From a virus (taxonomy: Duplodnaviria > Heunggongvirae > Uroviricota > Caudoviricetes), in the IMG/VR virus record IMGVR_UViG_3300032291_002057, positions 14,305-78,304 of that record: a stretch of 64,000 nt of DNA; one strand, given 5' to 3'. Positions 17,164-57,602 of this stretch are shown here, in pieces. Each line of letters opens with the position of its first letter. Within the stretch, counting starts at the first letter, position 1. The position numbers were made by a program, and so were the translations under genes. A model generated the notes under the pieces. That model had not been told where the DNA came from and did not search any database. It saw nothing but the letters and a program-made list of their open reading frames with translations.

Positions 17164-17169
17164 ACACAC

Positions 17170-18183
17170 ATGAAATACGCACTCATTGACACCGCAAATA
17201 CATTCTTCCGTGCTAGGCACGTTGCATCACGCAATAGTACCTTAGATGAAAAGATCGGCATGGCTCTACACTTGACACTTGCATCAGTCAATCAGGCTGT
17301 GCGTAAATATGGAATTGATCACGTAGTCTTTTGTTTAGAAGGTAGGTCGTTTCGCAAAGACTTGTATGCACCTTACAAAAAGAATCGTGTGGTCGATGCA
17401 CAATCAGTTACAGAGGCTGAAGCTGAGGAATCTAAAATGTTTTGGGAAACGTATGAAAAATTCACTACGTACATCAAGGAAAAGACCAATGTGTCTGTAC
17501 TAAGGCATGAACGTGCTGAGGCTGATGACATGATTGCCCGATTCATTCACTTACATCCAAATGACAATCACTGGATAATTTCAACAGATACGGATTATGA
17601 TCAACTCATAACTGAAAAAGTGGTACGCTACAATGGAGTAGGCAATGAACTTGTAACATTAAAGGGCTACTTTAAAGAAAATGGTAAGCCTGTTGTTGAC
17701 AAGAAAACTAAAGAGCCCAAACTATTAGAGGACCCTCAATACTTGCTATTCAAAAAATGTATGCGCGGTGATGCAAGCGATAATGTGTTTAGTGCATATC
17801 CCGGTGTACGTGAAAAAGGTAGCAAAAACAAAGTAGGACTTATGGAAGCATATGCTGACCGTAATAAACAGGGCTTTGATTGGAACAATCTGATGTTGCA
17901 ACGCTGGGTGGATCATGATAGTGTTGAGCATAGGGTACGTGAGGATTATGAACGTAACCGTAAATTAATTGATTTGACTGCACAGCCCCAAGATATCAAG
18001 GATGCAGTTGACGCACGTATCAAAGAGAGTGTCCGTATTGATACCATTCCACAAGTTGGAATTCATTTTATGAAATTTTGCGGAAAATATGAACTTACTA
18101 AAATTTCTGAACAAGCTGAGACTTATGCTAAGTGGCTTAATAGCCCATACAAAGGCACGTTACATGAATCACATACTGCATAG
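17170..18183 (+). CDS. 5'-3' exonuclease / flap endonuclease (RNase H-like, T4 rnh / T5 D15 type)
   Basis: N-terminal LIDTANTFFRA, acidic clusters (ADDMIARF, STDTDYDQL) and a PolI-type 5' nuclease layout. Confidence 0.8.
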   Translation: MKYALIDTANTFFRARHVASRNSTLDEKIGMALHLTLASVNQAVRKYGIDHVVFCLEGRSFRKDLYAPYKKNRVVDAQSVTEAEAEESKMFWETYEKFTTYIKEKTNVSVLRHERAEADDMIARFIHLHPNDNHWIISTDTDYDQLITEKVVRYNGVGNELVTLKGYFKENGKPVVDKKTKEPKLLEDPQYLLFKKCMRGDASDNVFSAYPGVREKGSKNKVGLMEAYADRNKQGFDWNNLMLQRWVDHDSVEHRVREDYERNRKLIDLTAQPQDIKDAVDARIKESVRIDTIPQVGIHFMKFCGKYELTKISEQAETYAKWLNSPYKGTLHESHTA

Positions 18184-19246: not shown

Positions 19247-19604
19247 TGCAGTATTATTTTTGTTGGTTCTACTTTTTATTAAACATTGGTATATTGATTT
19301 TGTCAATCAAACTAATGAAGAAGTGGCAAGCAAAGGTATCTATGGCGATGGTGCTGGTCTGGGGCATTCAATTAAACATGGCTTTGCCACACTGTTATGT
19401 ATTCTTTCAGTAACAGGATCACAATTCTTTGGATATGCAATGATTCTAGCATTTATTGACTTTGTTGTGCATTACCATGTTGATTGGCTTAAAATGAATT
19501 ATGGCAATCGTGATATCACGACCCCTGCTTTCTGGAATCATTTAGGGCTAGATCAACTTGCACATTATTTGACTTATTTGTTTATTGCAAGGATGATTGT
19601 ATGA
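19239..19604 (+). CDS. hypothetical membrane protein (3-4 predicted TM helices)
   Basis: Hydrophobic segments LFLLVLLFI, LCILSVTGSQFFGYAMILAFIDFVV. Confidence 0.4.
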   Translation: MIDAVLFLLVLLFIKHWYIDFVNQTNEEVASKGIYGDGAGLGHSIKHGFATLLCILSVTGSQFFGYAMILAFIDFVVHYHVDWLKMNYGNRDITTPAFWNHLGLDQLAHYLTYLFIARMIV

Positions 19605-19804
19605 ACGAACGAATTAAAGAACTAATGCAACAAGCAGGCACTGATATTAGTGGCAAATGGATGGGCGTGGACCATGCTGAAAAATTTGCCGAGTTGCTTG
19701 TACGGGAATGTGCCGACGTTCTACTTGAGCAGAAGAAAGAACCTTTCCCTCTTGATCCTGATTTTGCCGCAAGTTTAATCAAAGAACATTTTGAAGTTGA
19801 CTGA
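19601..19804 (+). CDS. MNERIKEL-family small protein (paralog 1)
   Basis: MNERIKELMQQ...FAELLVRECADVL...EHFEVD; 5' nucleotide sequence ATGAACGAACGAATTAAAGAACT is shared with the other copies. Confidence 0.5.
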   Translation: MNERIKELMQQAGTDISGKWMGVDHAEKFAELLVRECADVLLEQKKEPFPLDPDFAASLIKEHFEVD

Positions 19805-25958: not shown

Positions 25959-27200
25959 TTGGACGTGAATAAATTAACCCTATTATCTCTTTTATTTCTT
26001 GCAGGTTGCGGCGGAGGTGGCGGATCACAACCTCCTGCGACAACTGGTATAAACACTACAGCAGTAGATACATCATGCAGTGTTAGTTCCAGTATTGCAC
26101 CTGCAAGTTACACAGGCGTCTATCAGATTCCTGTACCAACTCAAAGATTAGATACAAATATTCAACGTGCAGTGGGCTTAAAGGACTATTACTCAGGTAG
26201 CACATGTTCGTATACTGTCACACTAGATAGATTACAAAAATTAGGTGTTGATAGAGTTTGGGTTTACAACTATGGAGTATGGGATGACTTTAGTAAACCC
26301 GTTTGGTCAATTGCAGATAATAATTGGCAAATCCCACAAGCATCATTTGCACATTTGTTATCAGAAGCAAATAAAAGAAACATCAAAGTGTTTGTGGCAT
26401 TACAGTTTACTGCTATTGATTCGAAGGGTAATATGTTGCCGTTTGGACAGAATATATCACCTACATTATTACAATCAATGCTTGACAGTCACAAAAAAGC
26501 ATTAACTAGTATAACTAACAAATATGGAAATAGTTTAGGCGGTGTCAGTTTAGATTGGAATGCATTTCATATTATAAATATGCAGGATCATACTGATAGA
26601 TGGGCTACCAATATGGTAGCACTAGCAAATGAAATTCGTAAAAACTTCTCAGGTGTCATTACATATGGACAACACGGTATGCCAAGTTATGATAGTAGAA
26701 TTTACAATGTTATTGACGAAATTCATATTAGCCTTGTACCAAGACTTACCTTAACAGAAAATAATAATATATCGGTCGCTTTATTAAAAACAAAATTTAC
26801 TGAGTTGATAAACCAATCGTTTACACAATTACAAAATACAACTAAACCAGTAACTTGGGAACTTAGTATTCAAAGCAGAGACAAGTATTTCTTAGAAGGT
26901 TGGGTAGAAGATGGATTCTGTATTGTGTCGGGAGGTAATGGCTCACCAACTGATTACAACAATCCATTATGCTCTCAAAAAAATCATGTAACTGATTTTA
27001 GTATCCAAGCTATGGGCGTAGAAGCGGCATTACAGGCTATTGCATCGCAAAACAAGTTTATAACTAAATCAGTTGATTTTCACACAAGCTATTGGCACAC
27101 TGATACCGTTACTCCTGGCAATGAAGGATTCCCTAACTTCTCACAATCTATTCGTGGTAAGCCAGCTGAAAGTATTATTAAATACTGGTTCACTAAATAA
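25959..27200 (+). CDS. lipoprotein (lipobox LAGC followed by a Gly-rich linker), possible carbohydrate-active exported enzyme
   Basis: LTLLSLLFLAGCGGGGGSQPP lipoprotein signal; 413 aa. Start codon uncertain (TTG 25959 or GTG 25965). Confidence 0.55.
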   Translation: MDVNKLTLLSLLFLAGCGGGGGSQPPATTGINTTAVDTSCSVSSSIAPASYTGVYQIPVPTQRLDTNIQRAVGLKDYYSGSTCSYTVTLDRLQKLGVDRVWVYNYGVWDDFSKPVWSIADNNWQIPQASFAHLLSEANKRNIKVFVALQFTAIDSKGNMLPFGQNISPTLLQSMLDSHKKALTSITNKYGNSLGGVSLDWNAFHIINMQDHTDRWATNMVALANEIRKNFSGVITYGQHGMPSYDSRIYNVIDEIHISLVPRLTLTENNNISVALLKTKFTELINQSFTQLQNTTKPVTWELSIQSRDKYFLEGWVEDGFCIVSGGNGSPTDYNNPLCSQKNHVTDFSIQAMGVEAALQAIASQNKFITKSVDFHTSYWHTDTVTPGNEGFPNFSQSIRGKPAESIIKYWFTK

Positions 27201-27204
27201 TAAT

Positions 27205-27831
27205 ATGGCACAATATTCAATCATAGGCATCAGTGGGACAGTTGACAATTTTATTGTTGATACTTTTACAAAGTTGGGATTGAGTGTGGAATATAATATT
27301 GATCGCCCGCTAGATGATTCACAAACTGCTGTTATTATTTCATATGGTCACGGTGGTTATGCCTGGGTTATGACTTCACACGCATTAAGAACGGTATTTA
27401 CATTTACACCTGAACTGTTTGATTCTTGGAAAAAGCACTGGGTAGGTGATGAACAAATTTTATGTAGTGAAGATATTACACATGAACGTTGGGCAAATCA
27501 TGTTCTAAAAAGTTATAATCACATCGGAGTCCACGCCCCGCTCAACGGACTACATGTTGAAGTTGAAAAAAGAATAGGTAATGACAAGTGCCCCAGACAT
27601 GAAATCAAACTTGAGGATATAGTCACCAATCCTGAAAAAGTATTGATACAAATTAGCATGATTGTCAACAAAGATATTCCTATAAATGTCAGAGAATTCT
27701 TCCTTACAGAACAAAAAAAGAAGAAGGAAATCATGGCTCCTTGGATGAATGCTATAGTATTACAAAATGAAAACTCACGAAACTTAAAAGTAAAACATTT
27801 TGATTACACTATTGATTTATTGATTGATTGA
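27205..27831 (+). CDS. hypothetical protein
   Basis: Internal ATG (MAQYSIIG...) of track ORF 27073-27831, chosen to avoid overlap with the lipoprotein gene. Confidence 0.4.
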   Translation: MAQYSIIGISGTVDNFIVDTFTKLGLSVEYNIDRPLDDSQTAVIISYGHGGYAWVMTSHALRTVFTFTPELFDSWKKHWVGDEQILCSEDITHERWANHVLKSYNHIGVHAPLNGLHVEVEKRIGNDKCPRHEIKLEDIVTNPEKVLIQISMIVNKDIPINVREFFLTEQKKKKEIMAPWMNAIVLQNENSRNLKVKHFDYTIDLLID

Positions 27832-27853
27832 ACAATTGTCCAAACAAAAATGG

Positions 27854-27882
27854 TTGACAATAAATCGTTTTGGACTTATACT
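27854..27882 (+). promoter_or_regulatory. early promoter copy A (TTGACAATAAATCGTTTTGGACTTATACT)
   Basis: TTGACA-17-TATACT; the downstream leader is near-identical to copy E at 43446. Confidence 0.6.
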
Positions 27883-27915
27883 ATAGTCTGTTCAGTTGAT
27901 TAAAGGAGTTTTCAA

Positions 27916-28116
27916 ATGATTAACGAATCAAAAGTTTTGGAAGTTGTCAAATCTGTAACCGAGACCAATGCTTATTTTTTCAACGGTACGTTGTTTTTGG
28001 AAACTATTGATAGCAAAATTGCTACTGACGTTTTCTTTGAAATTTGCGAAAAGGTTACAGCCGCGCTTGCTTTTGGTAAGGTTGGTAATGAAACTTCTTA
28101 CGATTTTTTCGGTTGA
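27916..28116 (+). CDS. hypothetical small protein (cassette gene)
   Basis: AAAGGAG RBS; its stop TGA lies inside the -35 TTGACA of the next promoter. Confidence 0.5.
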   Translation: MINESKVLEVVKSVTETNAYFFNGTLFLETIDSKIATDVFFEICEKVTAALAFGKVGNETSYDFFG

Positions 28117-28141
28117 CAATAAATCGTTTTGGGCATATAAT
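28113..28141 (+). promoter_or_regulatory. early promoter copy B (TTGACAATAAATCGTTTTGGGCATATAAT)
   Basis: Perfect TTGACA-17-TATAAT. Confidence 0.65.
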
Positions 28142-28166
28142 ACTTGTATTGATTGATTAAAGGAGC

Positions 28167-28505
28167 TTGCAAATGATTAACGTTAAAACACCCCTGAGTA
28201 CTAATGGTTCTGGTTATTGGTCTGATGTCGCTAAGACAGTACTTGTGACTGGATTAGAACTTTCGTATGTAAATGATGAGAATGACTTTGGTGAACTACG
28301 TGTTCATTTTGATACAAATACTTGGGACGTTGACGCTGACGGTCTTATCTATACTGACAAACAATTCATTAATGATTTAAAAGTATTACTTAATCGCATG
28401 GAATTAGATACCGATGTTTCTTATTCTGAACAAGGTATGCAAGGTGATACTTTTGTTAGTTTGGATGTTGGTCCTGAATTCATTAAATCTTTCAAAATGG
28501 CTTGA
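28167..28505 (+). CDS. hypothetical small protein (cassette gene)
   Basis: AAAGGAG RBS; its stop TGA is embedded in the next TTGACA. Confidence 0.5.
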   Translation: MQMINVKTPLSTNGSGYWSDVAKTVLVTGLELSYVNDENDFGELRVHFDTNTWDVDADGLIYTDKQFINDLKVLLNRMELDTDVSYSEQGMQGDTFVSLDVGPEFIKSFKMA

Positions 28506-28530
28506 CAATAAATCGTTTCGGGTATATAAT
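28502..28530 (+). promoter_or_regulatory. early promoter copy C (TTGACAATAAATCGTTTCGGGTATATAAT)
   Basis: TTGACA-17-TATAAT; leader near-identical to copy F at 43727. Confidence 0.65.
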
Positions 28531-28562
28531 AGAATCTTAAACAGTCGAAACAAGGAGTTAAA

Positions 28563-28835
28563 ATGTCTGCACTAGTTGAATACACATTGGAACTGTACAA
28601 ATCTGACAAACGTGTTAAGGGCGGTAAGCGTCTGGTCACTAAAGAAGAATTTGCCCCTGTCACTAGAGCCTACATCAAGGCTGTGATTGAAGCTAAAACT
28701 AAGTTGGGTTTTATTGTAGAACCCCATGAGACTTTTGTTACCAAACGCAACATGATGACTGGTAAGACTTACCAGGAACGTTACGATACTCCTTATTTCT
28801 GTTCTCCTTCTAGCGAATCTTACTGGAGCAACTAA
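28563..28835 (+). CDS. hypothetical small protein (cassette gene)
   Basis: CAAGGAG RBS; 90 aa. Confidence 0.5.
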   Translation: MSALVEYTLELYKSDKRVKGGKRLVTKEEFAPVTRAYIKAVIEAKTKLGFIVEPHETFVTKRNMMTGKTYQERYDTPYFCSPSSESYWSN

Positions 28836-29863: not shown

Positions 29864-31213
29864 ATGTCAGCAAGTTGGATTCGTAAGTTAAACGAGAGTG
29901 ATAGTCGCCTTCATAAAGAAGATGTAATTTTGCAGGCGCTTGAGGCAAGTGTCCTAGGTAGCAGTAACGCTATCAATTTCTTGTCATTTACTAAAGCATG
30001 TTACAATCCTTATGTGACGTTTGGTGTTCGTCAAGTGCCAGACACAGTTGGTATTACTGATGCAGAAAATCCTTGGGAAGAGTTTAACGAGTTGATGCTA
30101 CAACTTAGTCAACGTAGATTGACCGGACATGCCGCACGTGATGCTATTCAAAGTATGGCTGAACGATTTGATAGTGATGAGTGGAATACATTCTTAGCAC
30201 CTGTATTGCGTAGAGACTTACGTGCAGGTATTAGTGATAAGACAATTAACAAAATTTGTAAAAAAACAGATTATGAAATTCCTGTATTTGGTTGTCAACT
30301 AGCAACCAATAGTGAAGGTCGCCCTGAGATGAAAGGCATCAAACGTCTTGAACCTAAACTTGACGGTGTGCGTATGTTGTTGATGGTTATCCCAGGTGCA
30401 AGTGAAGGTGTAACTACTATTTGTTTTAGTCGTAATGGAAAACAGTTTGATAACTTTGGTCACATTGAAGAACAAGTACGTGACAATTGGGTTAAGATTG
30501 TTCGTGCATGTAAAGGGGTAGATCAAGGTCGTAGTTTGATTGATGGTTTTGTACTTGATGGTGAAGTGATTGGTAATACATTCCAAGAACTAATGCGCCA
30601 AGCACGCCGCAAAACTGATGTCCAAGCTGATGACAGTGTGTTTAATATTTTTGATATTATTCCATTAAGTGATTTCCGTGAAGGACATTGGAATGCTCAA
30701 CTACGTAAACGTATTGCACTACTTGATGCAATGCGACCTGTTGTTGATACGATGCCCAACGTAGAACTATTACCTCACATCATGGTTGACTTAGATACAG
30801 CCGCAGGTCGTGATCAACTTGAACGTTATGCCAAAGACAACGTGAATGCAGGCTTTGAAGGCATTATGATTAAAGAGTTAGAAGCCCCATATGTCTGTAA
30901 ACGTAGTACAGACTGGATGAAATGGAAACCTACGATTACTGTAGACTTGGAGGTCATCGGTGTTGAAGAAGGTACAGGACGAAATATGGGAAGAGTTGGA
31001 GCTCTTGTTTGCGCCGGAATTGATGACGGTAAAGAGATCCATGTCAATGTTGGTAGTGGCTTTAGCGATACTGATAGAGATAATCTTTGGAGTGACCGCA
31101 ATTTGGTTATTGGTCGAACTTGTGAAATCTTGTGTGATGTAATTACACAAAATCGTGATGGTACATACAGTTTGCGATTCCCTCGCTTTGTTAGATTTAG
31201 GGATGATAAATGA
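29864..31213 (+). CDS. ATP-dependent DNA ligase
   Basis: Adenylation motif I KLDGVRM (K-x-DG-x-R); 449 aa; strong RBS AAAGGAAAAAAA-ATG. Confidence 0.85.
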   Translation: MSASWIRKLNESDSRLHKEDVILQALEASVLGSSNAINFLSFTKACYNPYVTFGVRQVPDTVGITDAENPWEEFNELMLQLSQRRLTGHAARDAIQSMAERFDSDEWNTFLAPVLRRDLRAGISDKTINKICKKTDYEIPVFGCQLATNSEGRPEMKGIKRLEPKLDGVRMLLMVIPGASEGVTTICFSRNGKQFDNFGHIEEQVRDNWVKIVRACKGVDQGRSLIDGFVLDGEVIGNTFQELMRQARRKTDVQADDSVFNIFDIIPLSDFREGHWNAQLRKRIALLDAMRPVVDTMPNVELLPHIMVDLDTAAGRDQLERYAKDNVNAGFEGIMIKELEAPYVCKRSTDWMKWKPTITVDLEVIGVEEGTGRNMGRVGALVCAGIDDGKEIHVNVGSGFSDTDRDNLWSDRNLVIGRTCEILCDVITQNRDGTYSLRFPRFVRFRDDK

Positions 31214-31422
31214 ACGAACGAATTAAAGAACTTTACGACCAGGCTAACATCCGTTATTCAGTATATGAAATATTGAAACCACGAGATGAACGAAAAAATA
31301 TTCCGGATATATTCGCCGAGTTGATTGTGCGGGAATGTGTCCAGGCCGTAAAAAATGTCGGTGGCTACAACGAAGACTATCATATGAATGCTATCAAAAA
31401 ATATTTCGGAGTTGAAGAATGA
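31210..31422 (+). CDS. MNERIKEL-family small protein (paralog 2)
   Basis: MNERIKELYDQ...FAELIVRECVQAV...KYFGVEE; ATGA overlap with ligase. Confidence 0.5.
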   Translation: MNERIKELYDQANIRYSVYEILKPRDERKNIPDIFAELIVRECVQAVKNVGGYNEDYHMNAIKKYFGVEE

Positions 31423-31604
31423 TTAAACTTTGGTTAGCATTTATTATTATCGCTGTTCTTATTCACTTTGGTATTACTGCTTTGAGAAATATGAATGGTT
31501 TGGAACAATTAGCCTTGACAAAAAGCATAGGATATAGTATACTTGTATCAATGGCAGCAGTAATGTTGATCACAGTATTTGTAATTTTATTTTAAAGGAA
31601 AAAC

Positions 31605-36974: not shown

Positions 36975-38180
36975 ATGACCACTGATTCTAAACTAAACCA
37001 TTGCTCTTTTTGTAATACACATAAAGATAAAGTTAAAAAGCTAATTGTCGGAGATGATGTTGCAATTTGTAGTGACTGTATTGATTTATGCACCCAGCTT
37101 ATAGTTGATGATTCGTCAATTCCAGAAACCGAAACCAAACCAGAAGAAATAAAACACGACCCTTCATCTATTAAAGAATATTTAGATTTGCATGTGATTG
37201 GGCAAGACAGTGCAAAAGCAGTATTAAGCGTTGCTATTGCTAATCACTATAAACGTATTACTCATCCTCCTAAAGATTTAGAAATACAAAAAGGTAATGT
37301 ATTGATAATTGGACCCACTGGATCAGGTAAAACATTACTTGCTAAAACTGTCGCCAAATATCTCAAAGTGCCCTTTGTAGTAGCTGATGCTACGAGTTTG
37401 ACCGAAGCTGGATATGTGGGTGATGACGTTGAAAGTATGATTAGTATGCTAGTAAACGCCGCGGGCGGCGATGCTAAATTAGCTGAACGTGGTATTGTAT
37501 TTGTTGATGAAATTGACAAGATTGCACGTAAAAGTGAAGGATCTAGTATTACCCGTGATGTATCAGGTGAAGGTGTACAGCAAGCACTATTGAAATTAGT
37601 TGAAGGAACAGTATGTCGCATTCCAGCAGGTGGCGGAAGAAAACACCCCGGTGGTGACATGTTAGAAGTTAACACCAAAAATATTTTATTCATTGCAGGA
37701 GGAGCCTTTGTGGGATTGAAAGAAATTATCAACAATCGCACAAACGGAACAAGTATGGGATTTGGTGCTAAGATTAAAGATCAGAATACAGAGGGTGACT
37801 TAACATTAGTTACGCCTGATGACTTAACACGTTTTGGAATGATTCCTGAATTTATTGGACGATTTACAACCACAGTTAGTATTGGTGAACTAAGTAGAGA
37901 AGACCTTAAAAAGGTATTGACAGAAGTAAAAAATAATTACATCCAACAATATCAATATTTGTTGAGTATTGACGATATTGAGTTAACTTTTACAGACGAT
38001 GCACTTGACCAAATTGTAGATAATTGTCTTAAACTAAAAACAGGGGCACGTGGATTGCATACTGAAATTGAAAAAGTGTTGATGCCACACATGTTCAATA
38101 CTCGCAAATACCGTGAAAACAACATTAAAAAGATAAATATCAATCAGGAGCAAGTATTAAAACCAAAAGCAATTTTATGA
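36975..38180 (+). CDS. clpX: ATP-dependent Clp protease ATP-binding subunit ClpX
   Basis: N-terminal zinc-binding domain CSFC...CSDC; Walker A GPTGSGKTLLAKT; near full-length colinear match to ClpX including the IGF-loop region. Confidence 0.9.
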   Translation: MTTDSKLNHCSFCNTHKDKVKKLIVGDDVAICSDCIDLCTQLIVDDSSIPETETKPEEIKHDPSSIKEYLDLHVIGQDSAKAVLSVAIANHYKRITHPPKDLEIQKGNVLIIGPTGSGKTLLAKTVAKYLKVPFVVADATSLTEAGYVGDDVESMISMLVNAAGGDAKLAERGIVFVDEIDKIARKSEGSSITRDVSGEGVQQALLKLVEGTVCRIPAGGGRKHPGGDMLEVNTKNILFIAGGAFVGLKEIINNRTNGTSMGFGAKIKDQNTEGDLTLVTPDDLTRFGMIPEFIGRFTTTVSIGELSREDLKKVLTEVKNNYIQQYQYLLSIDDIELTFTDDALDQIVDNCLKLKTGARGLHTEIEKVLMPHMFNTRKYRENNIKKININQEQVLKPKAIL

Positions 38181-39016: not shown

Positions 39017-39328
39017 ATGTCAAAAACATCAACTGAAACAAAAATTAGAATTAAACCCAATCTTGCTATCAAAGAACCTCCGTTGTTCAAGATTATCTAC
39101 ATGAATGATAATGTTACTAGTATGGAATTTGTCGTAGGTACGTTGATCGATTATTTTAATTATAATGAAGATACTGCTACTTCTATCACTCATAATATTC
39201 ATGAGGAAGGAAGTGCAATTGTTGCAGTTTTACCCTATGAAATTGCAGAACAAAAAGGCATGGAAGTAACACTTGAAGCACGTAGTCAAGGATTCCCTTT
39301 GCTAGTTAAAGTGGAATCTGAAGCCTAA
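39017..39328 (+). CDS. clpS: ATP-dependent Clp protease adaptor ClpS
   Basis: PPLFKIIYMNDNVTSMEFVVGTL matches the ClpS core (VILLNDDYTPMEFV). Confidence 0.8.
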   Translation: MSKTSTETKIRIKPNLAIKEPPLFKIIYMNDNVTSMEFVVGTLIDYFNYNEDTATSITHNIHEEGSAIVAVLPYEIAEQKGMEVTLEARSQGFPLLVKVESEA

Positions 39329-42555: not shown

Positions 42556-43146
42556 ATGAATTTAGTCCCAATCGTTTTAGAACAAACAGCAAAAGGTGAG
42601 CGTAGTTATGATATCTATTCACGCCTCTTGCGTGACCGTGTAATCTTACTTGAAGGTGAAGTACACGACCAAATGGCAAATCTTATCGTTGCCCAATTAC
42701 TTTACTTAGAAAGTGAAGGCGATAAAGATATCTCAATGTATATCAATAGCCCGGGTGGTAGTGTAACTGCTGGTATGGCTATCTATGATACAATGCAATT
42801 TATCAAACCTGAAGTTATGACAATCGTTATGGGTCAGGCTTGTTCAATGGGAAGTCTATTAGCACAAGCAGGTGCACCAAACAAACGTTTTATTCTTCCA
42901 AATGCACGACACATGATCCATCAGCCTAGTGGTGGCGCACGTGGTCAAGCAACTGATATGCTAATTCAAGTAGAAGAAATTCTTGAAATGAAACGTAACT
43001 TAACCAATATATATGTTAAACACAATTCAAAAGAAAAAACTTTTGAACAACTAACACAAGATATGGAACGTGATAATTTTATGAGTGCTGATCAAGCCGT
43101 AAATTATGGCCTTGCAGACAAAATACTTACATCACGAAATAGTTAA
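42556..43146 (+). CDS. clpP: ATP-dependent Clp protease proteolytic subunit ClpP
   Basis: Colinear match to ClpP: catalytic Ser in GQACSMGS, His in MIHQP, Asp in DNFMSAD; [21 protein letters not shown]. Confidence 0.9.
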
Positions 43147-43160
43147 TTAGTATTACTTTT

Positions 43161-43184
43161 AGCCCCGTTTTTGGGGCTTTTTTA
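43161..43184 (+). terminator. rho-independent terminator after clpP
   Basis: AGCCCC-GTTTTT-GGGGCT followed by TTTTTT. Confidence 0.7.
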
Positions 43185-43187
43185 CGG

Positions 43188-43216
43188 TTGACAATAAAAT
43201 ATTTTGGGCATATAAT
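43188..43216 (+). promoter_or_regulatory. early promoter copy D (TTGACAATAAAATATTTTGGGCATATAAT), leaderless
   Basis: TTGACA-17-TATAAT; ATG 43223 lies 6 nt after the -10. Confidence 0.6.
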
Positions 43217-43222
43217 TCATGT

Positions 43223-43441
43223 ATGAAATCAAGAATTTATATCACTCAAAAAGATAACGACAAATACTTTAAGCAAAAATTACCTACATTCCGTAATGGT
43301 TTTTGCTATATTGAACGTGTTGTAACTTTTGAACAGGACCCAACCAATTCGTTTGACGAGGGTGAGTGGGGTTACATCACTGTAGGTAAACAAAAAGTAT
43401 TCGTTTTTGGTGACAAAAATTCCTTCGAAATTTGGAAGTAA
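43223..43441 (+). CDS. hypothetical small protein (cassette gene)
   Basis: 72-aa ORF directly downstream of promoter D. Confidence 0.45.
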   Translation: MKSRIYITQKDNDKYFKQKLPTFRNGFCYIERVVTFEQDPTNSFDEGEWGYITVGKQKVFVFGDKNSFEIWK

Positions 43442-43445
43442 ATGG

Positions 43446-43474
43446 TTGACAACAAATCATTTTGGGTTTATACT
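43446..43474 (+). promoter_or_regulatory. early promoter copy E (TTGACAACAAATCATTTTGGGTTTATACT)
   Basis: TTGACA-17-TATACT; leader TATAGTCTGTTCAGTTGATTAAAGGAG is identical to copy A. Confidence 0.6.
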
Positions 43475-43505
43475 ATAGTCTGTTCAGTTGATTAAAGGAG
43501 CATTT

Positions 43506-43730
43506 ATGTCTTTCACACAGTACATGATGGATTTTTATGGTCCCCAAAGTGATCTTTACCCCGAGTTGAATTTCAACGAAACACAAATCGCCATCGCTAC
43601 AGGCATCTACAAAATGCGCCTGACTACCGAAGGTAGGGAATTCTATGGGGACACTATGGATCGTGAAATGGTTCGTGATATCATCCTTGAAGCCCGTGAA
43701 AAAGTTTTGCCAGAGTTTGCAAAGGCTTGA
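43506..43730 (+). CDS. hypothetical small protein (cassette gene)
   Basis: ATG 8 nt after AAAGGAG (as in copy A); the track ORF start at 43488 would read through the RBS; stop TGA inside the next TTGACA. Confidence 0.45.
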   Translation: MSFTQYMMDFYGPQSDLYPELNFNETQIAIATGIYKMRLTTEGREFYGDTMDREMVRDIILEAREKVLPEFAKA

Positions 43731-43755
43731 CAATAAATCATTTTGGGTATATAAT
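43727..43755 (+). promoter_or_regulatory. early promoter copy F (TTGACAATAAATCATTTTGGGTATATAAT)
   Basis: Perfect TTGACA-17-TATAAT; leader AGAATCTTAAACAGTC...GGAGTTAAAA shared with copy C. Confidence 0.65.
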
Positions 43756-43789
43756 AGAATCTTAAACAGTCAACAAACAGGAGTTAAAA

Positions 43790-44245
43790 ATGGGTACACG
43801 TTCACTTATTGCAGTTGTTCATGGTGACAATTACAAAACAGTTTATTGTCATTGGGATGGCTACCTGTCGCACAATGGTCGCATTTTGCAAGAACACTAC
43901 AATAGTTCAAAAGCCAATCATCTTGTTGCATTGGGCAATATCTCTAGTCTTGGAACTGAGATTGGCGAAAAGCATCCCTTCAGTCAATTTGATACTGACA
44001 TGCCAGCCAAAGAGTTTGAAGAAAAGTATGGCAACATGACTACATTCTATGGTCGTGACCGTGAAGAAGAAGGTCAAGAGTTTATCACGCACACCAGCAA
44101 AGAATCATTGATTGAACATTTCAACGAGTCTTGGTGTGAGTTTGCATACATTATGAAAGACAGCACATGGTATGTTATGTATCAAGGTGATACTGAATTG
44201 CGTGTGTTGTCAGAAGAATTGGCTAAAGTAACTGAGGAAGTTTAA
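43790..44245 (+). CDS. hypothetical protein (cassette gene)
   Basis: 151-aa ORF after the shared leader. Confidence 0.5.
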   Translation: MGTRSLIAVVHGDNYKTVYCHWDGYLSHNGRILQEHYNSSKANHLVALGNISSLGTEIGEKHPFSQFDTDMPAKEFEEKYGNMTTFYGRDREEEGQEFITHTSKESLIEHFNESWCEFAYIMKDSTWYVMYQGDTELRVLSEELAKVTEEV

Positions 44246-44574
44246 TGGAAGCAGTAGTAGAAACAACAGTATGGAGTGATAGCAATCTTGCCAATCACAC
44301 TTACCTTCTTGATGGTACTAAAATGATTGCGTACATTAAAGTTGGTTCTACTACTCCATTCTATTTTAAGAACCCGATCACCATCGACAAACGTGGTCGC
44401 AAGTTCCAAGCATTGAAAGTTAATCCTTTCAAAAAGATAAAAGAAAAATCTACTATAATTAAAGTATCTGGTAGCAAGGGTAATATATATAGTATTGATA
44501 CAGTAGATAAAACATGCACATGCCCTGGATACACATTTCGCGGTACTTGTAAACATATTACGGAGTTGGTATGA
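44245..44574 (+). CDS. SWIM zinc-finger protein
   Basis: C-terminal CTCPGYTFRGTCKHI (C-x-C-x(n)-C-x-H). Confidence 0.5.
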   Translation: MEAVVETTVWSDSNLANHTYLLDGTKMIAYIKVGSTTPFYFKNPITIDKRGRKFQALKVNPFKKIKEKSTIIKVSGSKGNIYSIDTVDKTCTCPGYTFRGTCKHITELV

Positions 44575-44810
44575 ACGAACAAACAATTGATCTTTACAAA
44601 CAAGCAACAGAGTTTGCCTATGATTCTATCGGAAAAGAACATTCCAATACCGCATACTTTCAAGGTACTATTGCAGGAAAGTTTGCCGAGTTGATGTTGA
44701 CAGAATTTAAAAGTGTATTACTTAACATGATGAATAAAGGTCAAGGTGAGTTTGATACTTTGGACCAAGCACTTACAGAAATTAACGAACATTTCGGAGT
44801 TGAAGAATGA
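44571..44810 (+). CDS. MNE-family small protein (paralog 3)
   Basis: MNEQTIDLYKQ...FAELMLTEF...EHFGVEE; starts ATGAACGAAC. Confidence 0.5.
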   Translation: MNEQTIDLYKQATEFAYDSIGKEHSNTAYFQGTIAGKFAELMLTEFKSVLLNMMNKGQGEFDTLDQALTEINEHFGVEE

Positions 44811-45178
44811 CCAATGAAATCACCGTAGAAATGCTGGACCGCAAGATTGCATGGTGTGAGCAAAAGCTAGCGGACGCCAAGGCAGCAGCCATCCAGCACA
44901 TGCAGGATTTTTACTTTGAAAAGACCCGGGCCAGTGTGACCGAGTCTTGGCCTGAAACATTCTCATCACAGGAACTTGCTGATACTTTGGGTATAGAGCA
45001 AGTGCGGTATAGAATCTACTACAGCCGAGATAATCTCACTTGCCGACTGTTTGTGTTTCGCCCTTACTGTACACCAACTGAAATGGAAACAATGTTGGGT
45101 ATGGGGTTTGTGTTTGCACAAGATGGTGATACAGAAAATATCCCTGATAAACCAGTAGAAGAGGAAGTTGAAGAATGA
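44807..45178 (+). CDS. hypothetical acidic protein embedded in the MNE array
   Basis: 123 aa, ends VEEEVEE; ATGA overlaps on both sides. Confidence 0.45.
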   Translation: MTNEITVEMLDRKIAWCEQKLADAKAAAIQHMQDFYFEKTRASVTESWPETFSSQELADTLGIEQVRYRIYYSRDNLTCRLFVFRPYCTPTEMETMLGMGFVFAQDGDTENIPDKPVEEEVEE

Positions 45179-45351
45179 ACGAACGAATGTTTGAACTATT
45201 AGCGCAAGCCCGCAATCAACCACTTGATGTGGTCAAGGCTGCACCATTTGGATCAGCCATGCTTACCCCTGCACAATTGGAAACATACACCAAATTGGTT
45301 ATTGAAGAATGTGCTAAAATAACCAAACAACATTTTGGAGTTGAAGAATGA
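45175..45351 (+). CDS. MNE-family small protein (paralog 4, 58 aa, not in the ORF track)
   Basis: MNERMFELLAQ...LVIEECAKITKQHFGVEE; ATGA overlaps. Confidence 0.45.
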   Translation: MNERMFELLAQARNQPLDVVKAAPFGSAMLTPAQLETYTKLVIEECAKITKQHFGVEE

Positions 45352-45584
45352 ACGAACGAATTAAACAACTTGAACTTCAGGCTGCTGACGGCACTGTCGA
45401 TCCTAATGGACCATTTACAGCGGAAGAATTCAACAACTTTACAAAAAAGTTCGCCGAGTTGATTGTTAAGGAAATGTGTAGTGTGTTAGACAAGGCACAA
45501 TGGGACAAAGGTGAAGATTGGATATGTGCTGACGGCACACGAATCATCCCACAGATTAAAGAACATTTCGGAGTTGAAGAATGA
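45348..45584 (+). CDS. MNERIKEL-family small protein (paralog 5)
   Basis: MNERIKQLELQ...FAELIVKEMCSV...EHFGVEE. Confidence 0.5.
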   Translation: MNERIKQLELQAADGTVDPNGPFTAEEFNNFTKKFAELIVKEMCSVLDKAQWDKGEDWICADGTRIIPQIKEHFGVEE

Positions 45585-45819
45585 TTGAAAGTATTATTAT
45601 TGTCGCAGTTGTTATTATTGTTGGTGTAAATATTCTAACAACAGTATCAACAAGATTTCGCCGCTGGTTATATAAGGATATGACATGAATGAAGAATTAA
45701 AGCAATTGGTTTTAAAAGCAGGTGCACCTAAAGAAGTGCTTGATGAATTGTGGTTCAATATCTTTTGTCAACAATTCGTTGATGTATTACTCACCGAAGT
45801 AGAAACAATTTTATAAATT

Positions 45820-53849: not shown

Positions 53850-54431
53850 TTAGTTCTTTATGTAATTCCACGTACCTCCGCAACCAAAATTACAATTTAT
53901 CAACATACTTGCAGAATCCGGAGCTGATCCTGTTTGCTGAACGTTCACCGTTGATCCTATTGCTCCGTTTAAGTTAACTTGAAACCATTTATTTGCACCT
54001 ACTCCACCTGATTGAGTAGCGTTTATATTGTTTCCATTATTAGTAGAACCATTCCAATTATCCACATTAAATGTATGACTTCCTACACCACTCTGATTTA
54101 CATTTATGCCATTATTAGATCCATTTAGATTTATAACACTTGCAGTATGATTACCAGTGCCTTGTTGATTGACATTGATGTTATTATAAATTCCTGCATT
54201 TAAAGTAATACTAGTGGTTTTTATTCCTGGATCTTGTTGTGTTACATTGATAGAGTTATTATTCGCATTAATTGCTTTACCCATTACAATACTAGTAATA
54301 TGCTGGTCATCAGTTTGATTAACTGTGATTGTGTTATTGTCACCTATTTGGTCAATATGTACGTTTGGTGATGGTTGTGCAAATGATATAGAACAAAAAA
54401 ATAAAAGAATAATAAATCTCATTTTAATCAC
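53850..54431 (-). CDS. secreted curlin-repeat protein (CsgA/CsgB-like amyloid subunit candidate 2)
   Basis: Sec signal; repeated S/N-x5-Q-x-G-x-G-N-x-A-x3-Q-like units (IDQIGDNNTITVNQ, INVNQQGTGNHTASV, INVNQSGVGSHTFNV, NINATQSGGVGANKW); Asn/Gln/Gly-rich. Confidence 0.65.
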   Translation of the reverse strand: MIKMRFIILLFFCSISFAQPSPNVHIDQIGDNNTITVNQTDDQHITSIVMGKAINANNNSINVTQQDPGIKTTSITLNAGIYNNINVNQQGTGNHTASVINLNGSNNGINVNQSGVGSHTFNVDNWNGSTNNGNNINATQSGGVGANKWFQVNLNGAIGSTVNVQQTGSAPDSASMLINCNFGCGGTWNYIKN

Positions 54432-55533
54432 TCTGCCTTAATGTAATTATTGTATTGCCACCTTGATTTATACGGTTGTTAACTTCAAAACTTCCCTGAA
54501 CCATAGATACTAATGAATTTTGTGTTCGGGGAGTTTGCACACATGCAATGTTGCTCCCTGCATCTTCTCTACATAACTGAACAGACAAATCATCCACAGC
54601 AACTTTGACACCTGTCAATGCATTATAATCCGGTAACAATTTTCCGTCAATAGTATTCAGTACATTCAGTTGCGCTGCCAGTTGCATATTAATTAGATCC
54701 AATACATTAACTAAAAAGTCTTGTTCTAAAAAGTTTTGACTAAGTTTGTCTTGCCACATTTCTTTTTCTATTTTATCTAACTCATTTATTAATTTGTTTT
54801 CAGCAAGAAAGTCTACATCTAACGACCCTGATGCATTTACTCTTACTGTTGATCTTTCTTCTTTAAATTCTTTAGGTGGACTAACAATAATCATGTTATT
54901 AATTTCAATGTCAGTGAGTTTTAAAATTACTGACTTAAGTGAACTACGCGGTGTTTCTACACGTGTTGCTTGAAATGCTTGATTTAGTATAATAGTCCCA
55001 ATTTCATTAGTGATACTGATTTCACCCACTTTACAATCACGGTCAATTACTTTCCAATTAGGAGGACAACTAGGTAGTAATATAACTGTGCTACGACCTA
55101 TTTCATCAACACTAGCAGTAAAATCAGTACCACGAACACTGATTGTAGCGGTTGGAGTGTTAACTGAGACATTTTGAGGAGAGTTTTTAGCAATTTGTCC
55201 ACTAGCATATCTTACAGTCCCTAAAGCTACTTTCATCCCTAATTTACCAACTTTGCTTTTAGGGTCATAAACAAAATCATCAATTACTAATCTACTGTTT
55301 TCAGTAATTTGAACTTTGGTGTCATCATCAAATGTTATCCCTGCTTTGCCTTGAACTGTTCTCACCGCATCGTTCATTTCTACTGCGGTGCCTTTCTTCC
55401 CATCCACGGTCGTCTTCTGTCGTTGTATCGAAGCTGGGTTGTTGGATATCTCTGTTATTGTCCCAATCCCCGCGACGGCGTGCAGAGATATACTTAGCAA
55501 CAATAAACATTTTAGCTGGTTCCATATTTTCAT
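54424..55533 (-). CDS. secreted protein with FecR-like beta-sandwich region, embedded between the two curlin genes
   Basis: Signal peptide; ISVRGTDFTASV resembles the FecR domain core (RGT-x-F). Confidence 0.45.
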   Translation of the reverse strand: MKIWNQLKCLLLLSISLHAVAGIGTITEISNNPASIQRQKTTVDGKKGTAVEMNDAVRTVQGKAGITFDDDTKVQITENSRLVIDDFVYDPKSKVGKLGMKVALGTVRYASGQIAKNSPQNVSVNTPTATISVRGTDFTASVDEIGRSTVILLPSCPPNWKVIDRDCKVGEISITNEIGTIILNQAFQATRVETPRSSLKSVILKLTDIEINNMIIVSPPKEFKEERSTVRVNASGSLDVDFLAENKLINELDKIEKEMWQDKLSQNFLEQDFLVNVLDLINMQLAAQLNVLNTIDGKLLPDYNALTGVKVAVDDLSVQLCREDAGSNIACVQTPRTQNSLVSMVQGSFEVNNRINQGGNTIITLRQSD

Positions 55534-55542
55534 TAATACACC

Positions 55543-56346
55543 TTATTTTGTATTACTGTTTATAGTGAATGTGTTACCGTTACCAGTTGTTTTAATACTA
55601 ACTATACTGTTTCCACTTGTTCCGGCTTGTGTGATATCAAACGTATTATTACTTCCACCTGCACTTCCGTCAACAGTAGTACTATGTCCACTTCCGGTTC
55701 CACTGTCTTGTGTTAACGTAATTTTGTTTCCTGTTCCGTTAGTTGTAATAGAGTTAGTTGCGGCAACTACTGCGGTAGTTGCACCGGCAGTATATGTAAA
55801 CTCATTACCTGCACCACCTGTCATACTAACCGTAGTGCTTGTATTTGAACCAGTAATGCTAGCAAGAACTACTTGATTTACACCACCGTATTGAGTAGTA
55901 TTCAACGTATTCTGTGAACCGTTAATAGTTACATTAGCAGTAGAACCATCTGCTGTGTTGCCACTTGTACCTTGCACAACAGATATTGTGTTATTGTCAC
56001 AAGTTTTACCACCTGATGCATCACAACTAATATTTGCGGTAGAATTATTACCTTGCATTGTATAAGTTAATGAATTATTACTTCCTAAATTACCTGCATT
56101 CAACGCAAGTTTTAACAAGTTACTACTACCTATTTGGTCTATAAGTACAGTGGTGCCATTCCCATATATTCTGGCATCATCATCACTTGCTACCCCAGGA
56201 CCTTTTACGGTATTACCCGCGCCGTCTTGGGTCATAGTGATAGTGCTATTATCACCTATCTGGTCAATATAAATTTTATTATCTGCGGCAAAAGCAGAAA
56301 CCATATATAATGCCATCATTGTTATTATTATTTTTTTCAATGACAT
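55543..56346 (-). CDS. secreted curlin-repeat protein (CsgA/CsgB-like amyloid subunit candidate 1)
   Basis: Sec signal MSLKKIIITMMALYMVSAFAA; repeated IDQIGDNSTITMTQDG / LIDQIGSSN units; G/N/T/S-rich beta-solenoid-like repeats. Confidence 0.6.
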   Translation of the reverse strand: MSLKKIIITMMALYMVSAFAADNKIYIDQIGDNSTITMTQDGAGNTVKGPGVASDDDARIYGNGTTVLIDQIGSSNLLKLALNAGNLGSNNSLTYTMQGNNSTANISCDASGGKTCDNNTISVVQGTSGNTADGSTANVTINGSQNTLNTTQYGGVNQVVLASITGSNTSTTVSMTGGAGNEFTYTAGATTAVVAATNSITTNGTGNKITLTQDSGTGSGHSTTVDGSAGGSNNTFDITQAGTSGNSIVSIKTTGNGNTFTINSNTK

Positions 56347-56349
56347 TTT

Positions 56350-57153
56350 TTATTTTTCCTTTGTGTTAAGTTCAGCGTACTTCCATATGCCTTTACGCTC
56401 TCCTTCCTTTATTAACTCTATCACACTTGCTTCAATGGCACTCTTAACTGCAAATGTTCCGGGCTCATTTATCGTGACCCCTGTTTCAAACTCAAATGCA
56501 TTAGTACCGGCATCTAAAAACTTCAATGCTGAAATACTATCACTTGCGCTTAAAATTCTTTTTTGTACTGTTACTGTTATTAAAACTTCTCCAGTACTTA
56601 CACTAATTGCTCTTAAACTTACAGTTACAATATCTTCACTATATTGTGTCTGTGGCCCTACTCCTAACCAACGAGCAGCCATACCACCTGATTTTACAGA
56701 ACTATCATATCCTATAATTCCACCGTCAAGTATTATACCTGCGAACTTCAATGGTGTTAAAGGTTTTGCATTTGGTCCTTCATATGCTTCACGCATTTGA
56801 CGAATGATAGTGCGCTCACGTGTCAATGCATCAATACTAACTCTTTCTATAACAGTAAACCATTTACCTTTTCCAACATCTTGTAATGCTTTGATTAAGA
56901 ATGTTTCTGCACCTTGTGTAACCGCTGTACTTAAACTTGCTATGTTTGCTTGTGGTCTACGCTGTCCTGTTTTATCAGCAAAACTATAAACTGCTACTGT
57001 CATAGGCGCTGATGCCGGTAACGGCACCAAATCAATATCACGTGCCATTTTTGTAGGCACTATCTCAGGTTCGCTGCCGCCCTTTTCTAAGTAGCTTATA
57101 GCACATCCTGACAATGAAAATATCAAACATAGTAATAAAAATTTTTGTTTCAT
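56350..57153 (-). CDS. csgG: curli production assembly/transport outer-membrane lipoprotein CsgG
   Basis: Lipobox LSGC; colinear similarity to E. coli CsgG: VAVYSFADKTGQ, STAVTQGAETFLIKALQD, GGIIGYDSSVKSGGMAARWLGVGPQTQY, VSLRAISVSTGEVL. Confidence 0.9.
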   Translation of the reverse strand: MKQKFLLLCLIFSLSGCAISYLEKGGSEPEIVPTKMARDIDLVPLPASAPMTVAVYSFADKTGQRRPQANIASLSTAVTQGAETFLIKALQDVGKGKWFTVIERVSIDALTRERTIIRQMREAYEGPNAKPLTPLKFAGIILDGGIIGYDSSVKSGGMAARWLGVGPQTQYSEDIVTVSLRAISVSTGEVLITVTVQKRILSASDSISALKFLDAGTNAFEFETGVTINEPGTFAVKSAIEASVIELIKEGERKGIWKYAELNTKEK

Positions 57154-57602
57154 TAAAATTGAAATTGTCCTAATGGTACTGTTATTTGTGTGCTAGTCCC
57201 TGTAGTATCTGTTACTGTTAGATATACATTGCTAGAATCCTTACTCCAAAAAATAGTATTCCCTTCAAAGTTTAGTGTTCCAGAACTACTACCGCCATTT
57301 GCAAACATAGCAGTGGCTAAGTTTTGACTAATCTGTGCATAGATACGACTTTCTAAGTTATTTAAAAATTTCTGTAAATTCGTGTTTTTTGCATCAGAAG
57401 CTGCCTTATCAATTGCTGCCTGTATAGCATCTTTCATGGCTTTTTTTCTAGTGGATTCTTGATTCTCAATTGTTAACACATGACTGCTATAACCTTGGCC
57501 GTTAAAACTAGGACTTTTAAAACTATAATCAGGCAACGGAGCACTATACACAACACTTGTGCAAGTTAATAACGTCAACAATAATATAGGTTTTGTATCC
57601 AT
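57153..57602 (-). CDS. csgF: curli assembly protein CsgF
   Basis: Signal peptide; mature N-terminus FKSPSFNGQGYS (compare FQFRNPNFGG in E. coli CsgF) and C-terminal TGTSTQITVPLGQFQF. TAATG overlap with csgG, same order as E. coli csgFG. Confidence 0.7.
   Translation of the reverse strand: MDTKPILLLTLLTCTSVVYSAPLPDYSFKSPSFNGQGYSSHVLTIENQESTRKKAMKDAIQAAIDKAASDAKNTNLQKFLNNLESRIYAQISQNLATAMFANGGSSSGTLNFEGNTIFWSKDSSNVYLTVTDTTGTSTQITVPLGQFQF

Follow-up and report, generated by a model that had tools for sequence, protein, structure and literature searches.

The DNA analysed here, referred to as the window, comprises 64,000 nucleotides (nt) of the IMG/VR virus record IMGVR_UViG_3300032291_002057 (positions 14,305 to 78,304). 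It contains two arrays of small genes, each gene headed by a copy of a 29-bp sigma70-type promoter, TTGACAATAAATnnnTTTGGGyATATAAT, which occurs exactly six times, always on the + strand. Copies A, B and C start at positions 27854, 28113 and 28502 and copies D, E and F at 43188, 43446 and 43727. As read from the window, their consensus is (G)G-TTGACAATAAATC(G/A)TTTTGGG(C/T)(A/T)-TATAAT, and all six are co-oriented. Below, a promoter together with the leader that follows it, up to the start codon, is called a module, and a module with its gene a cassette; families of cassette products carry numbers (f0, f1 and so on).

In the first array, module A (27854-27915) combines a TTGACA-17-TATACT promoter (27854-27882) with a 33-nt leader containing the Shine-Dalgarno (SD) sequence AAGGAG and precedes open reading frame (ORF) 27916-28116 (66 amino acids, f13). 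Module B (28113-28172) joins a consensus promoter (28113-28141) to the leader ACTTGTATTGATTGATTAAAGGAG ahead of ORF 28173-28505 (110 amino acids, f15), and module C (28502-28562) joins a consensus promoter (28502-28530) to a leader of the form AGAATCTTAAACAGTC...GGAGTTAAA ahead of ORF 28563-28835 (90 amino acids, f6). The second array opens with module D (43188-43222), whose promoter (43188-43216) is followed by the 6 nt TCATGT and the ATG, at 43223, of ORF 43223-43441 (72 amino acids, f11). Module E (43446-43505; promoter 43446-43474, TTGACA-17-TATACT) carries an A-like leader and precedes ORF 43506-43730 (74 amino acids, f18); module F (43727-43789) has a consensus promoter (43727-43755), a leader of the form AGAATCTTAAACAGTC...GGAGTTAAAA and ORF 43790-44245 (151 amino acids, f1). 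The TTGACA-17-TATAAT arrangement is perfect in B, C, D and F and matches at 11 of 12 hexamer positions in A and E, where the −10 reads TATACT. Modules A, B, C, E and F have an SD sequence, AAGGAG or AGGAG, at 5-8 nt ahead of the ATG, module D being the leaderless exception.

Searching the window with the 29-mer at up to three mismatches recovered five of the six copies (0.00 expected, from 100 shuffles), and a looser pattern recovered all six (0.01 expected by chance). A profile hidden Markov model (HMM) built exclusively from copies in relatives matched the six at E = 2e-11 to 7e-7; its next match stood at 0.047, and it detected no further copy in the window. The motif and profile searches agree with the initial annotation, which had described the promoters at 43188, 43446 and 43727 as repeats of one consensus. 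A general scan for TTGACA-N17-TATAAT returned other sigma70-like sites, for example at 17135 and 59143. Since these two promoters lack the conserved spacer, the spacer marks the modules as a distinct class.

The stop codon of ORF 43506-43730 is the TGA within the TTGACA of module F (43727-43732), as had been noticed at the outset, and ORFs 27916-28116 and 28173-28505 likewise stop at the TGA within the next −35, that of modules B and C. Upstream, module D adjoins an intrinsic terminator situated behind clpP (43161-43184, + strand; AGCCCCGTTTTTGGGGCT followed by a run of T). Its hairpin, a 7-bp stem with five GC pairs, is present in the minimum-energy fold, and the second array begins right behind it. 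No terminators were seen between the cassettes of either array; the arrays should thus yield nested, overlapping transcripts.

The leaders of modules A and E are identical over the 26 nt of ATAGTCTGTTCAGTTGATTAAAGGAG (27883-27908 and 43475-43500) and differ in the final 5-7 nt before the ATG (TTTTCAA versus CATTT), so that the identity first described over a 31-nt span stands for its first 26 nt and ends there. When the 33-nt regions upstream of the window's genes were compared in all 6105 pairs, A/E ranked first, with 28 of 33 positions identical and an uninterrupted run of 26, against a background of 13.0 ± 2.0 identical positions, a mean run of 5.3 and a 99.9th-percentile run of 12.9; the leader identity therefore exceeds that of random upstream pairs, and the refutation named at the outset fails. 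The C and F leaders, which had also been reported to match, share AGAATCTTAAACAGTC and GGAGTTAAAA (16 and 10 nt) on either side of a divergent middle and fall among the top seven pairs. The other top-scoring pairs are upstream regions of a group of paralogous ORFs beginning with MNERIKEL (described at the end). Modules A and B share TTGATTAAAGGAG as well as the first three codons of their genes, ATGATTAAC. Rfam models found nothing at gathering thresholds in the whole window, and only sub-threshold noise at a permissive setting in the second array (43100-43900).

The products encoded behind these leaders are of no common family. No Pfam family was found in any of the six, and only those of f18 and f1 had PHROGs matches, both of unknown function. 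BLASTP produced one weak match of 24 residues between ORF A and ORF E (E = 5e-4 in a single comparison) and nothing for the other pairs. Profile-profile comparison with hhalign, run on an alignment built for each family from its relatives, gave a probability below 1% for each of the 15 pairs. The distant A/E homology suggested by BLASTP was rejected on this basis, and the initial view that the downstream proteins are unrelated was confirmed, with no hidden homology in any pair. The same comparisons bear on the idea that whole cassettes were duplicated and their coding parts diverged, the A/E and C/F genes then being very distant paralogues. Although the 24-residue match and the three initial codons common to ORFs A and B could be taken as remnants of such an ancestry, the profile probabilities for all six families, the different protein lengths (66 versus 74 and 90 versus 151 amino acids), the possession by each family of its own well-conserved orthologues across the clade, and the finding (below) that leaders change while the gene stays make this explanation most improbable.

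Distant homologues of f1 and f18, at 33-42% amino-acid identity, exist in T4-like cyanophages and Vibrio phages and in jumbo phages such as GAP32 and CBB. The f1 homologue of GAP32 lies inside a tightly packed gene run. Because only 14 nt separate it from the preceding ORF, it leaves no room for a module, and the occurrence of the same module in this cultured jumbo phage was rejected. No match to GenBank phages was obtained with the second array in megablast, or in tblastn with a neighbouring 510-residue protein of the window. The DNA ligase encoded in the window is at most 34% identical to the ligase of any cultured phage, its matches and those of a ClpX homologue spanned only 30-52% amino-acid identity, and no T4 core gene is present in the window. 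Metagenomic matches, by comparison, were numerous. With the f1 protein (43790-44245), 13 loci in IMG/VR were matched (76-88% amino-acid identity), of which one lies on a contig of 359,563 bp; the exact motif TTGACAATAAATNNNTTTGGGTATATAAT was present in at least 120 stretches of IMG/VR, among them contigs of 303-364 kb; and the FEN nuclease of the window matched at least 600 stretches. Among bacterial and archaeal genomes (one genome for each of 185,579 species), the motif had a single match, on a 1.9-kb contig of a metagenome-assembled genome (MAG), so that a host promoter or a prophage as its origin was rejected. From the GenBank, IMG/VR and bacterial/archaeal searches, the window belongs to an abundant uncultivated clade of jumbo phages, and the motif is specific to that clade. 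The sole bacterial match (L134; CAIUKZ010000432.1, 1880 bp) was binned in a Bacteroidales MAG from Lake Erken, probably through a binning error that placed a piece of phage DNA there; a host among the Bacteroidota would be at odds with canonical sigma70 and SD signals. In the searchable full-text literature, the motif strings matched only two unrelated mouse papers, and a broader term search came back empty.

Copies of the module with up to four mismatches were gathered from 134 sources (393 copies, 344 unique; the relatives' loci are numbered from L001 onward). Within the 29-mer, conservation amounts to 81-100% at positions 0-11 and 15-28, a figure inflated by the gathering of copies by motif, and positions 12-14 are free ([G/C][G/A]N). 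Searching by protein similarity instead yielded 12 f1 orthologues with upstream sequence, and the module is present in all 12. Per-family mean identities over orthologous copies, calculated for seven families, were 92-98% at the 26 fixed promoter positions, 44-63% at the three central spacer bases (about 46% in six of the seven), 78-95% at first and second codon positions, 55-79% at third codon positions and 30-65% in the upstream flank (30-48% in six of the seven). Since invariant and free positions stand side by side within 29 bp, this pattern argues for constraint or continual homogenisation and not merely for recent copying.

Every copy is co-oriented with its gene, and the distance from the −10 to the first ORF-opening ATG is strictly bimodal, with 28 copies at exactly 6 nt and 342 of the 393 at 26-34 nt. 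The upstream ORF ends at the TGA of TTGACA in 127 of the 344 unique copies and 4-8 nt upstream in 107 more; in only one does it extend beyond that TGA, to promoter position +8. A short AAA(G/A)(G/T) lead-in is conserved before the promoter, and an extended AT-rich block is absent. Neighbouring copies show local homogenisation. The variable spacer triplet is shared by 28.9% of 173 adjacent-copy pairs versus 9.9% of random pairs (p = 2e-12, an optimistic value for reasons given below); in the window, the three copies of the first array all have CGT, and E and F both have CAT.

The near-invariant spacer raises the question of what recognises it. The motif could be the operator or recognition site of a phage-encoded regulator (a global early-gene repressor, an activator or an appropriator) that reads the invariant spacer halves, ATAAAT ... 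TTTGGGTA; conservation of the module would then reflect co-regulation, with recombination as a by-product. Sigma70 does not normally impose a constraint of the kind seen at spacer positions 6-11 and 15-22 (81-99% conserved, with 12-14 free), the motif is essentially absent from bacterial genomes, and the perfect TTGACA-17-TATAAT promoters at 17135 and 59143 do without this spacer. However, no candidate regulator was identified, the dyad symmetry read from the spacer is unconvincing beyond AAA-N4-TTT, gene conversion, through concerted evolution, would keep the spacer intact as well, and the conservation estimates carry the inflation already mentioned. We hold a regulator site to be possible though doubtful; it could coexist with a role of the modules in recombination, to which the following observations point.

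Clustering the first 16 nt after the −10 resolved about 10 recurrent leader types across the 393 copies. The C/F type, AGAATCTTAAACAGT, is the most frequent and stands ahead of genes from 34 unrelated protein families, and the leader type of module B recurs exactly at 28 places in relatives. Each of the 22 largest protein families (4-34 copies) occurs with two to seven leader types, and the f18 orthologues alone have at least four leader variants. Between L002 and L001 or L006, the 33 nt from TATAAT to ATG are wholly replaced (B type versus C/F type), while both flanking genes are nearly identical and the promoters differ only at the middle base of the variable spacer triplet. A hybrid leader in L009 has an A/E-like 5′ half joined at CAGTT to the 3′ half usually seen among f1 orthologues. 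The −10 variant and the leader type are linked, TATACT with the A/E type and TACAAT with a further type, G, and linkage between features decays with distance across the module. Such decay would fit, and favours, homologous exchange rather than a fixed crossover point.

The leader differences among relatives, the L002 swap, the L009 cassette and the mixed arrays described below bear out the earlier proposal that modules of promoter and 5′ untranslated region were exchanged independently of the coding regions. The factual statements of the initial annotation all stand, the shorter A/E identity being the one small correction. The accompanying claim that the leaders of the second array were duplicated from the first is not supported: nothing shows copying from one to the other, and both use the roughly 10 leader types of a clade-wide pool. 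Could the resemblances have arisen without any exchange, each upstream region being selected independently toward an optimal promoter and ribosome-binding site? The −35, −10 and SD sequences are indeed textbook consensus elements of the sort favoured by selection for strong expression. Yet the identity spans non-consensus positions (the 26 nt common to the A and E leaders; AGAATCTTAAACAGT in 34 gene families), leaders are replaced between near-identical flanks, and neighbouring copies share a spacer triplet that is otherwise free, so that convergence of this kind seems very unlikely.

Most leaders are predicted to be unstructured (0 to −3 kcal/mol). The G-type leader, AGAGGCUUCUGUAGUGAAAAGGAGCUUUU (for example L001:1572-1630; L001-L012 and others, upstream of f2), forms a predicted 10-bp hairpin of −10.3 kcal/mol that hides the SD. 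This type is rarer, does not occur in the window, is always accompanied by the TACAAT −10 and is the only one with an SD-hiding hairpin; unlike the unstructured types, it may be regulated. Pairing of the 5′ leader with the SD as a general feature was rejected, as a stable hairpin exists only in the G type.

Whole cassettes differ among relatives as well. The f6 gene (window 28563) is closely similar in DNA, with most columns identical, in the window, L032, L064 and L116, and more diverged in L062. In all five contexts the leftward similarity stops at TTGACA, and the upstream genes are unrelated. In L062, the homologue of window 27073-27831 abuts the f6 cassette, and the window has the additional f13 and f15 cassettes at that place. 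Around the second array, the window, L005 and L008-L012 share a syntenic backbone of clpS, 39325, 40448, clpP, a variable slot, f1, a SWIM gene and a phosphoesterase gene; the slot behind clpP holds f11 and f18 in the window and f2 and f0, with or without f15 or f28, in the relatives. L009 corresponds to L005 with exactly one cassette of 390 bp added, which has a promoter copy at either boundary; this cassette is an orthologue of gene 28173 of the window's first array. Cassette order is permuted as well: the window has f13-f15-f6 and, 14.7 kb further on, f11-f18-f1, and arrays in relatives mix members of both (f18-f6 in L089, f11-f12-f6 in L102, f9-f6..f1 in L133); a further array reads f2-f15-f0-f1.

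Breakpoints of homology are enriched at the modules, which contain 24.5% of all internal breakpoints in 2.4% of the sequence (about 10-fold). Of 387 module boundaries, 61% carried a breakpoint; for windows of the same size ahead of 2068 other predicted gene starts, the figure was 22% (odds ratio 5.6). The loci share ancestry and were retrieved around modules, which makes the p-values of this and of the triplet test optimistic; the direction of effect is clear in both.

Single-gene cassettes bounded by a conserved 29-bp site, indels that begin and end exactly at promoter copies, and homology starting precisely at the left edge of the site would also be expected of a dedicated mobile element or site-specific recombination system (an integron attC, a miniature inverted-repeat transposable element or a homing target), the promoter match being secondary. 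Terminal inverted repeats and target-site duplications are not present, however; without exception the site precedes its gene, in the same orientation and with a fixed spacing to the ATG; linkage decays gradually across the module; a stem-loop is found in a minority of copies without covariation (see below); and no integrase-like gene was seen adjoining either array. We therefore regard such a system as quite improbable.

Repeated promoters with a comparable layout are known from the T4-type phages RB49/phi1, PST/T4 and nt-1/KVP40 as PeSLs (promoter-early stem-loops), elements composed of a repeated early promoter of sigma70 consensus, a stem-loop terminator and an SD sequence at the 3′ end, which precede ORFans in hyperplastic regions (PMC2839356; PMC4122927). 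They have been proposed to drive modular shuffling by recombination, with mini-circle intermediates (Arbiol et al. 2010, PMC2839356; Comeau et al. 2014, PMC4122927); such circles have been shown for PeSLs. In the present case, the predicted folds of the six window modules are no more stable than those of shuffled sequence (z = −1.3 to +0.9). The −35 of module A is flanked by a weak 7-bp stem, GTCCAAA/TTTGGAC, which is not significant (z = −1.3). Among the 344 unique copies, 41 (about 12%) have an ACCCAAA/TTTGGGT stem of at least 5 bp around the −35, and upstream sequences are enriched in CCAAA, complementary to the TTTGG of the spacer; no covariation was detected in this stem beyond column composition (8 versus 5.1 ± 1.5 stems of at least 8 bp). 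A PeSL-type stem-loop at the −35 was accordingly rejected as a general feature and kept as a minority one. Perfect inverted repeats of 11-12 bp enclose the −35 at L025:5713 and L020:1056 (compare also window 27838-27876); in repeats of this type, deviations in the spacer are mirrored in the upstream arm, as in ATAGTCCCAAAA / TTTTGGGACTAT, and overall covariation is not significant.

PeSLs are the closest described system. As with PeSLs, the promoters match the strong sigma70 consensus; the 3′ end of the module supplies the SD and start codon (in A, B, C, E and F); the stop codon of the upstream gene sits at the module edge; and the modules stand before small ORFans in hyperplastic regions between syntenic anchors, with a content that varies among relatives. 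Single-gene insertions, deletions and replacements with junctions in the repeats occur among close relatives in both cases, and the proposed mechanism is likewise homologous recombination between repeats. The differences concern the defining stem-loop terminator, which is missing from most copies here (only D has a terminator, just upstream); the 17-bp spacer, nearly invariant clade-wide; the roughly 10 discrete leader types, which are swapped separately from the gene; the leaderless state with its exact 6-nt spacing; and the lineage, uncultivated, represented by contigs of 303-364 kb and devoid of close GenBank relatives. The modules behave like PeSLs in every evolutionary respect tested, yet fail the name-giving stem-loop.

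Together, these data make it likely, in our judgement, that the modules are early promoter-leader expression cassettes that double as sites of recombination and gene conversion, in the manner of PeSLs. In this model the unit would be a self-contained expression cassette of a lytic jumbo phage, made up of a promoter, a leader allele and a small gene of unknown function. The promoter part spans about 31 bp: an A-rich/GG lead-in, a perfect −35 (TTGACA), a near-invariant 17-bp spacer with three free central bases and the −10, TATAAT. The leader part is one of about 10 alleles, mostly 26-34 nt long, largely unstructured and ending in a strong SD, or no leader at all, in which case transcription would start on the A of the AUG. 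Host RNA polymerase of the sigma70 type would most likely read these promoters early in infection. Being near-exact repeats, present many times per genome and in co-infecting relatives, the promoters would provide portable homology for recombination and short-patch gene conversion. Crossovers between promoter copies would delete, insert or permute whole cassettes, and conversion tracts running from the promoter to a conserved leader block (CAGT, AAAGGAG) or to the ATG would replace the leader only. The two arrays of the window would then be two hyperplastic sites filled from a common pool.

Several points weigh against this model. Promoter strength, timing and start sites are predicted from the match to consensus and by analogy to T4-type early promoters. 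Recognition by sigma70 alone does not explain the near-invariant spacer, and a phage factor may be involved. Motif-based gathering makes the modules look more conserved than they are, and the relatedness of the loci affects the statistics, as stated above. Breakpoints would also be enriched at modules if selection retained rearrangements at gene boundaries alone, out of events that occurred anywhere. Leader-only swaps have only a few nucleotides of right-hand homology, and some of the variety among leaders may be old, its alleles reassorted by ordinary homologous recombination when relatives co-infect a cell. A bolder version appears unlikely to us: the 29-bp core would be a recognition platform of freshwater jumbo phages, its spacer read by a phage factor and the site serving for exchange within an integron-like pool of early genes, with the leader alleles, the leaderless state among them, kept polymorphic by diversifying selection. 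One possible pressure on these alleles would be escape from RNA- or DNA-targeting host defences that could hit dozens of early transcripts through a shared leader.

The leaderless state was analysed separately. In module D, TATAAT ends at 43216 and the ATG starts at 43223, leaving 6 nt and no SD. Canonically, sigma70 promoters start transcription 7 nt after the −10; the predicted +1 of D is therefore the A of the ATG. The D messenger RNA is thus predicted to be leaderless, as the initial annotation had suggested, and this prediction is supported by the exactness and conservation of the spacing, which recurs in 28 copies in relatives. Among the f11 orthologues, four further distinct copies lack a leader and three others possess one with an SD; their start codon is fixed, as the N-termini align between leaderless and leader-bearing copies. 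In f8, 15 of 15 copies keep exactly 6 nt, the sequence of which varies while its length never does.

The same geometry had been attributed to the promoter at 17135. This promoter (17135-17169, + strand) is a perfect TTGACA-17-TATAAT whose TATAAT ends at 17163; 6 nt follow, and the ATG lies at 17170, at the head of gene 17170-18183, which encodes the FEN/5′-3′ exonuclease (phrog_107 exonuclease). The attribution was right as to the 6-nt leaderless geometry. The promoter class is another one: the conserved spacer is missing, and the cassette-module profile scored E = 0.13. Judged from its sequence, the FEN promoter is a separate class and not a copy of the module, with which it shares the −35 and −10 hexamers and the 6-nt geometry only. 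In relatives, a −10-like hexamer lies exactly 6 nt before the ATG in 22 of 42 readable FEN starts. A conserved promoter-like motif, AAATAGTAGTATATAAT (or TAGTAGTATACT), occurs upstream of FEN in many of the relatives L135-L214, with or without a TTGACA −35; it may represent a distinct class of phage promoters, for example a middle class. Another site in the window (31515-31543, + strand) reads TTGACA-17-TATACT, TGTATCA, ATG, with the ATG 7 nt after the −10, and may be another near-leaderless start.

Three further systems invite comparison. T4 early promoters are host-polymerase promoters present in many copies, with conservation beyond the sigma70 hexamers, and serve small non-essential early genes. 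The modules resemble them in being repeated many times, in conservation past the hexamers and in the small, presumably non-essential early genes that they precede. They differ in their extended consensus, and this phage is not demonstrably related to T4. The lambda cI messenger from PRM is a leaderless phage transcript with its start codon at the transcription start and no SD. In the leaderless modules, too, no SD is present and the start codon coincides with the predicted +1, but the predicted leaderless state is here one interchangeable allele of a repeated promoter cassette and is used for presumed early lytic genes and for the FEN nuclease gene. Integron cassettes also form arrays of single unrelated genes with a short conserved site between them and a variable order and content. 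They are usually promoterless, have a structured attC at the 3′ end and need an integrase. The repeat described here lies 5′ of the gene, is a co-oriented promoter and has no conserved structure; no integrase domain was found in the scanned flanking ORFs of either array. The resemblance is only superficial.

The finding involves no new principle. Repeated early promoters acting as portable recombination sites have so far been described only for T4-type phages, and the present analysis would extend them to a very abundant uncultivated clade of jumbo phages. It adds as new details that the 5′ leader is an exchangeable module with a small set of alleles and that the exact, predicted leaderless geometry is one of these alleles. 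In practical terms, the 29-mer can serve in metagenomic searches as a specific marker for the clade and for its hyperplastic regions, the range of plausible hosts is narrowed by the canonical sigma70 and SD signals, and the modules are candidate strong promoter and leader parts. The natural swaps are experiments of nature on how ORFan regions of phages are assembled.

Other genes of the window deserve mention. Near the second array, a ClpX homologue (36975-38180, + strand) is about 50% identical to the ClpX of Atu_ph07 and of the Lak phages, and two ORFs within 6 kb of it (39017-39328 and 42556-43146, + strand) were read from their sequence as putative ClpS and ClpP. The paralogous MNERIKEL ORFs are seven in number, all small and on the + strand (7945-8169, 19601-19804, 31210-31422, 44571-44810, 45175-45351, 45348-45584 and 45685-45816). 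Their products mostly end in HFGVEE and belong to no Pfam or PHROG family. The C-terminal codons, GGAGTTGAAGAATGA, provide the following gene with a GGAG that resembles an SD and with an ATGA in which stop and start overlap, an arrangement that suggests translational coupling. A curli-type secretion set on the − strand (54424-57602) includes CsgG (1e-45), CsgF (2e-14), a curlin-repeat protein and a FecR-domain protein, an unusual cargo for a phage. Besides the DNA ligase and the FEN nuclease, the window encodes a GTP cyclohydrolase I (3305-3979, + strand; 1e-61) and a radical-SAM protein (6851-7705, + strand; sub-threshold Pfam match), which may belong to a 7-deazaguanine (preQ0-type) pathway of DNA modification.

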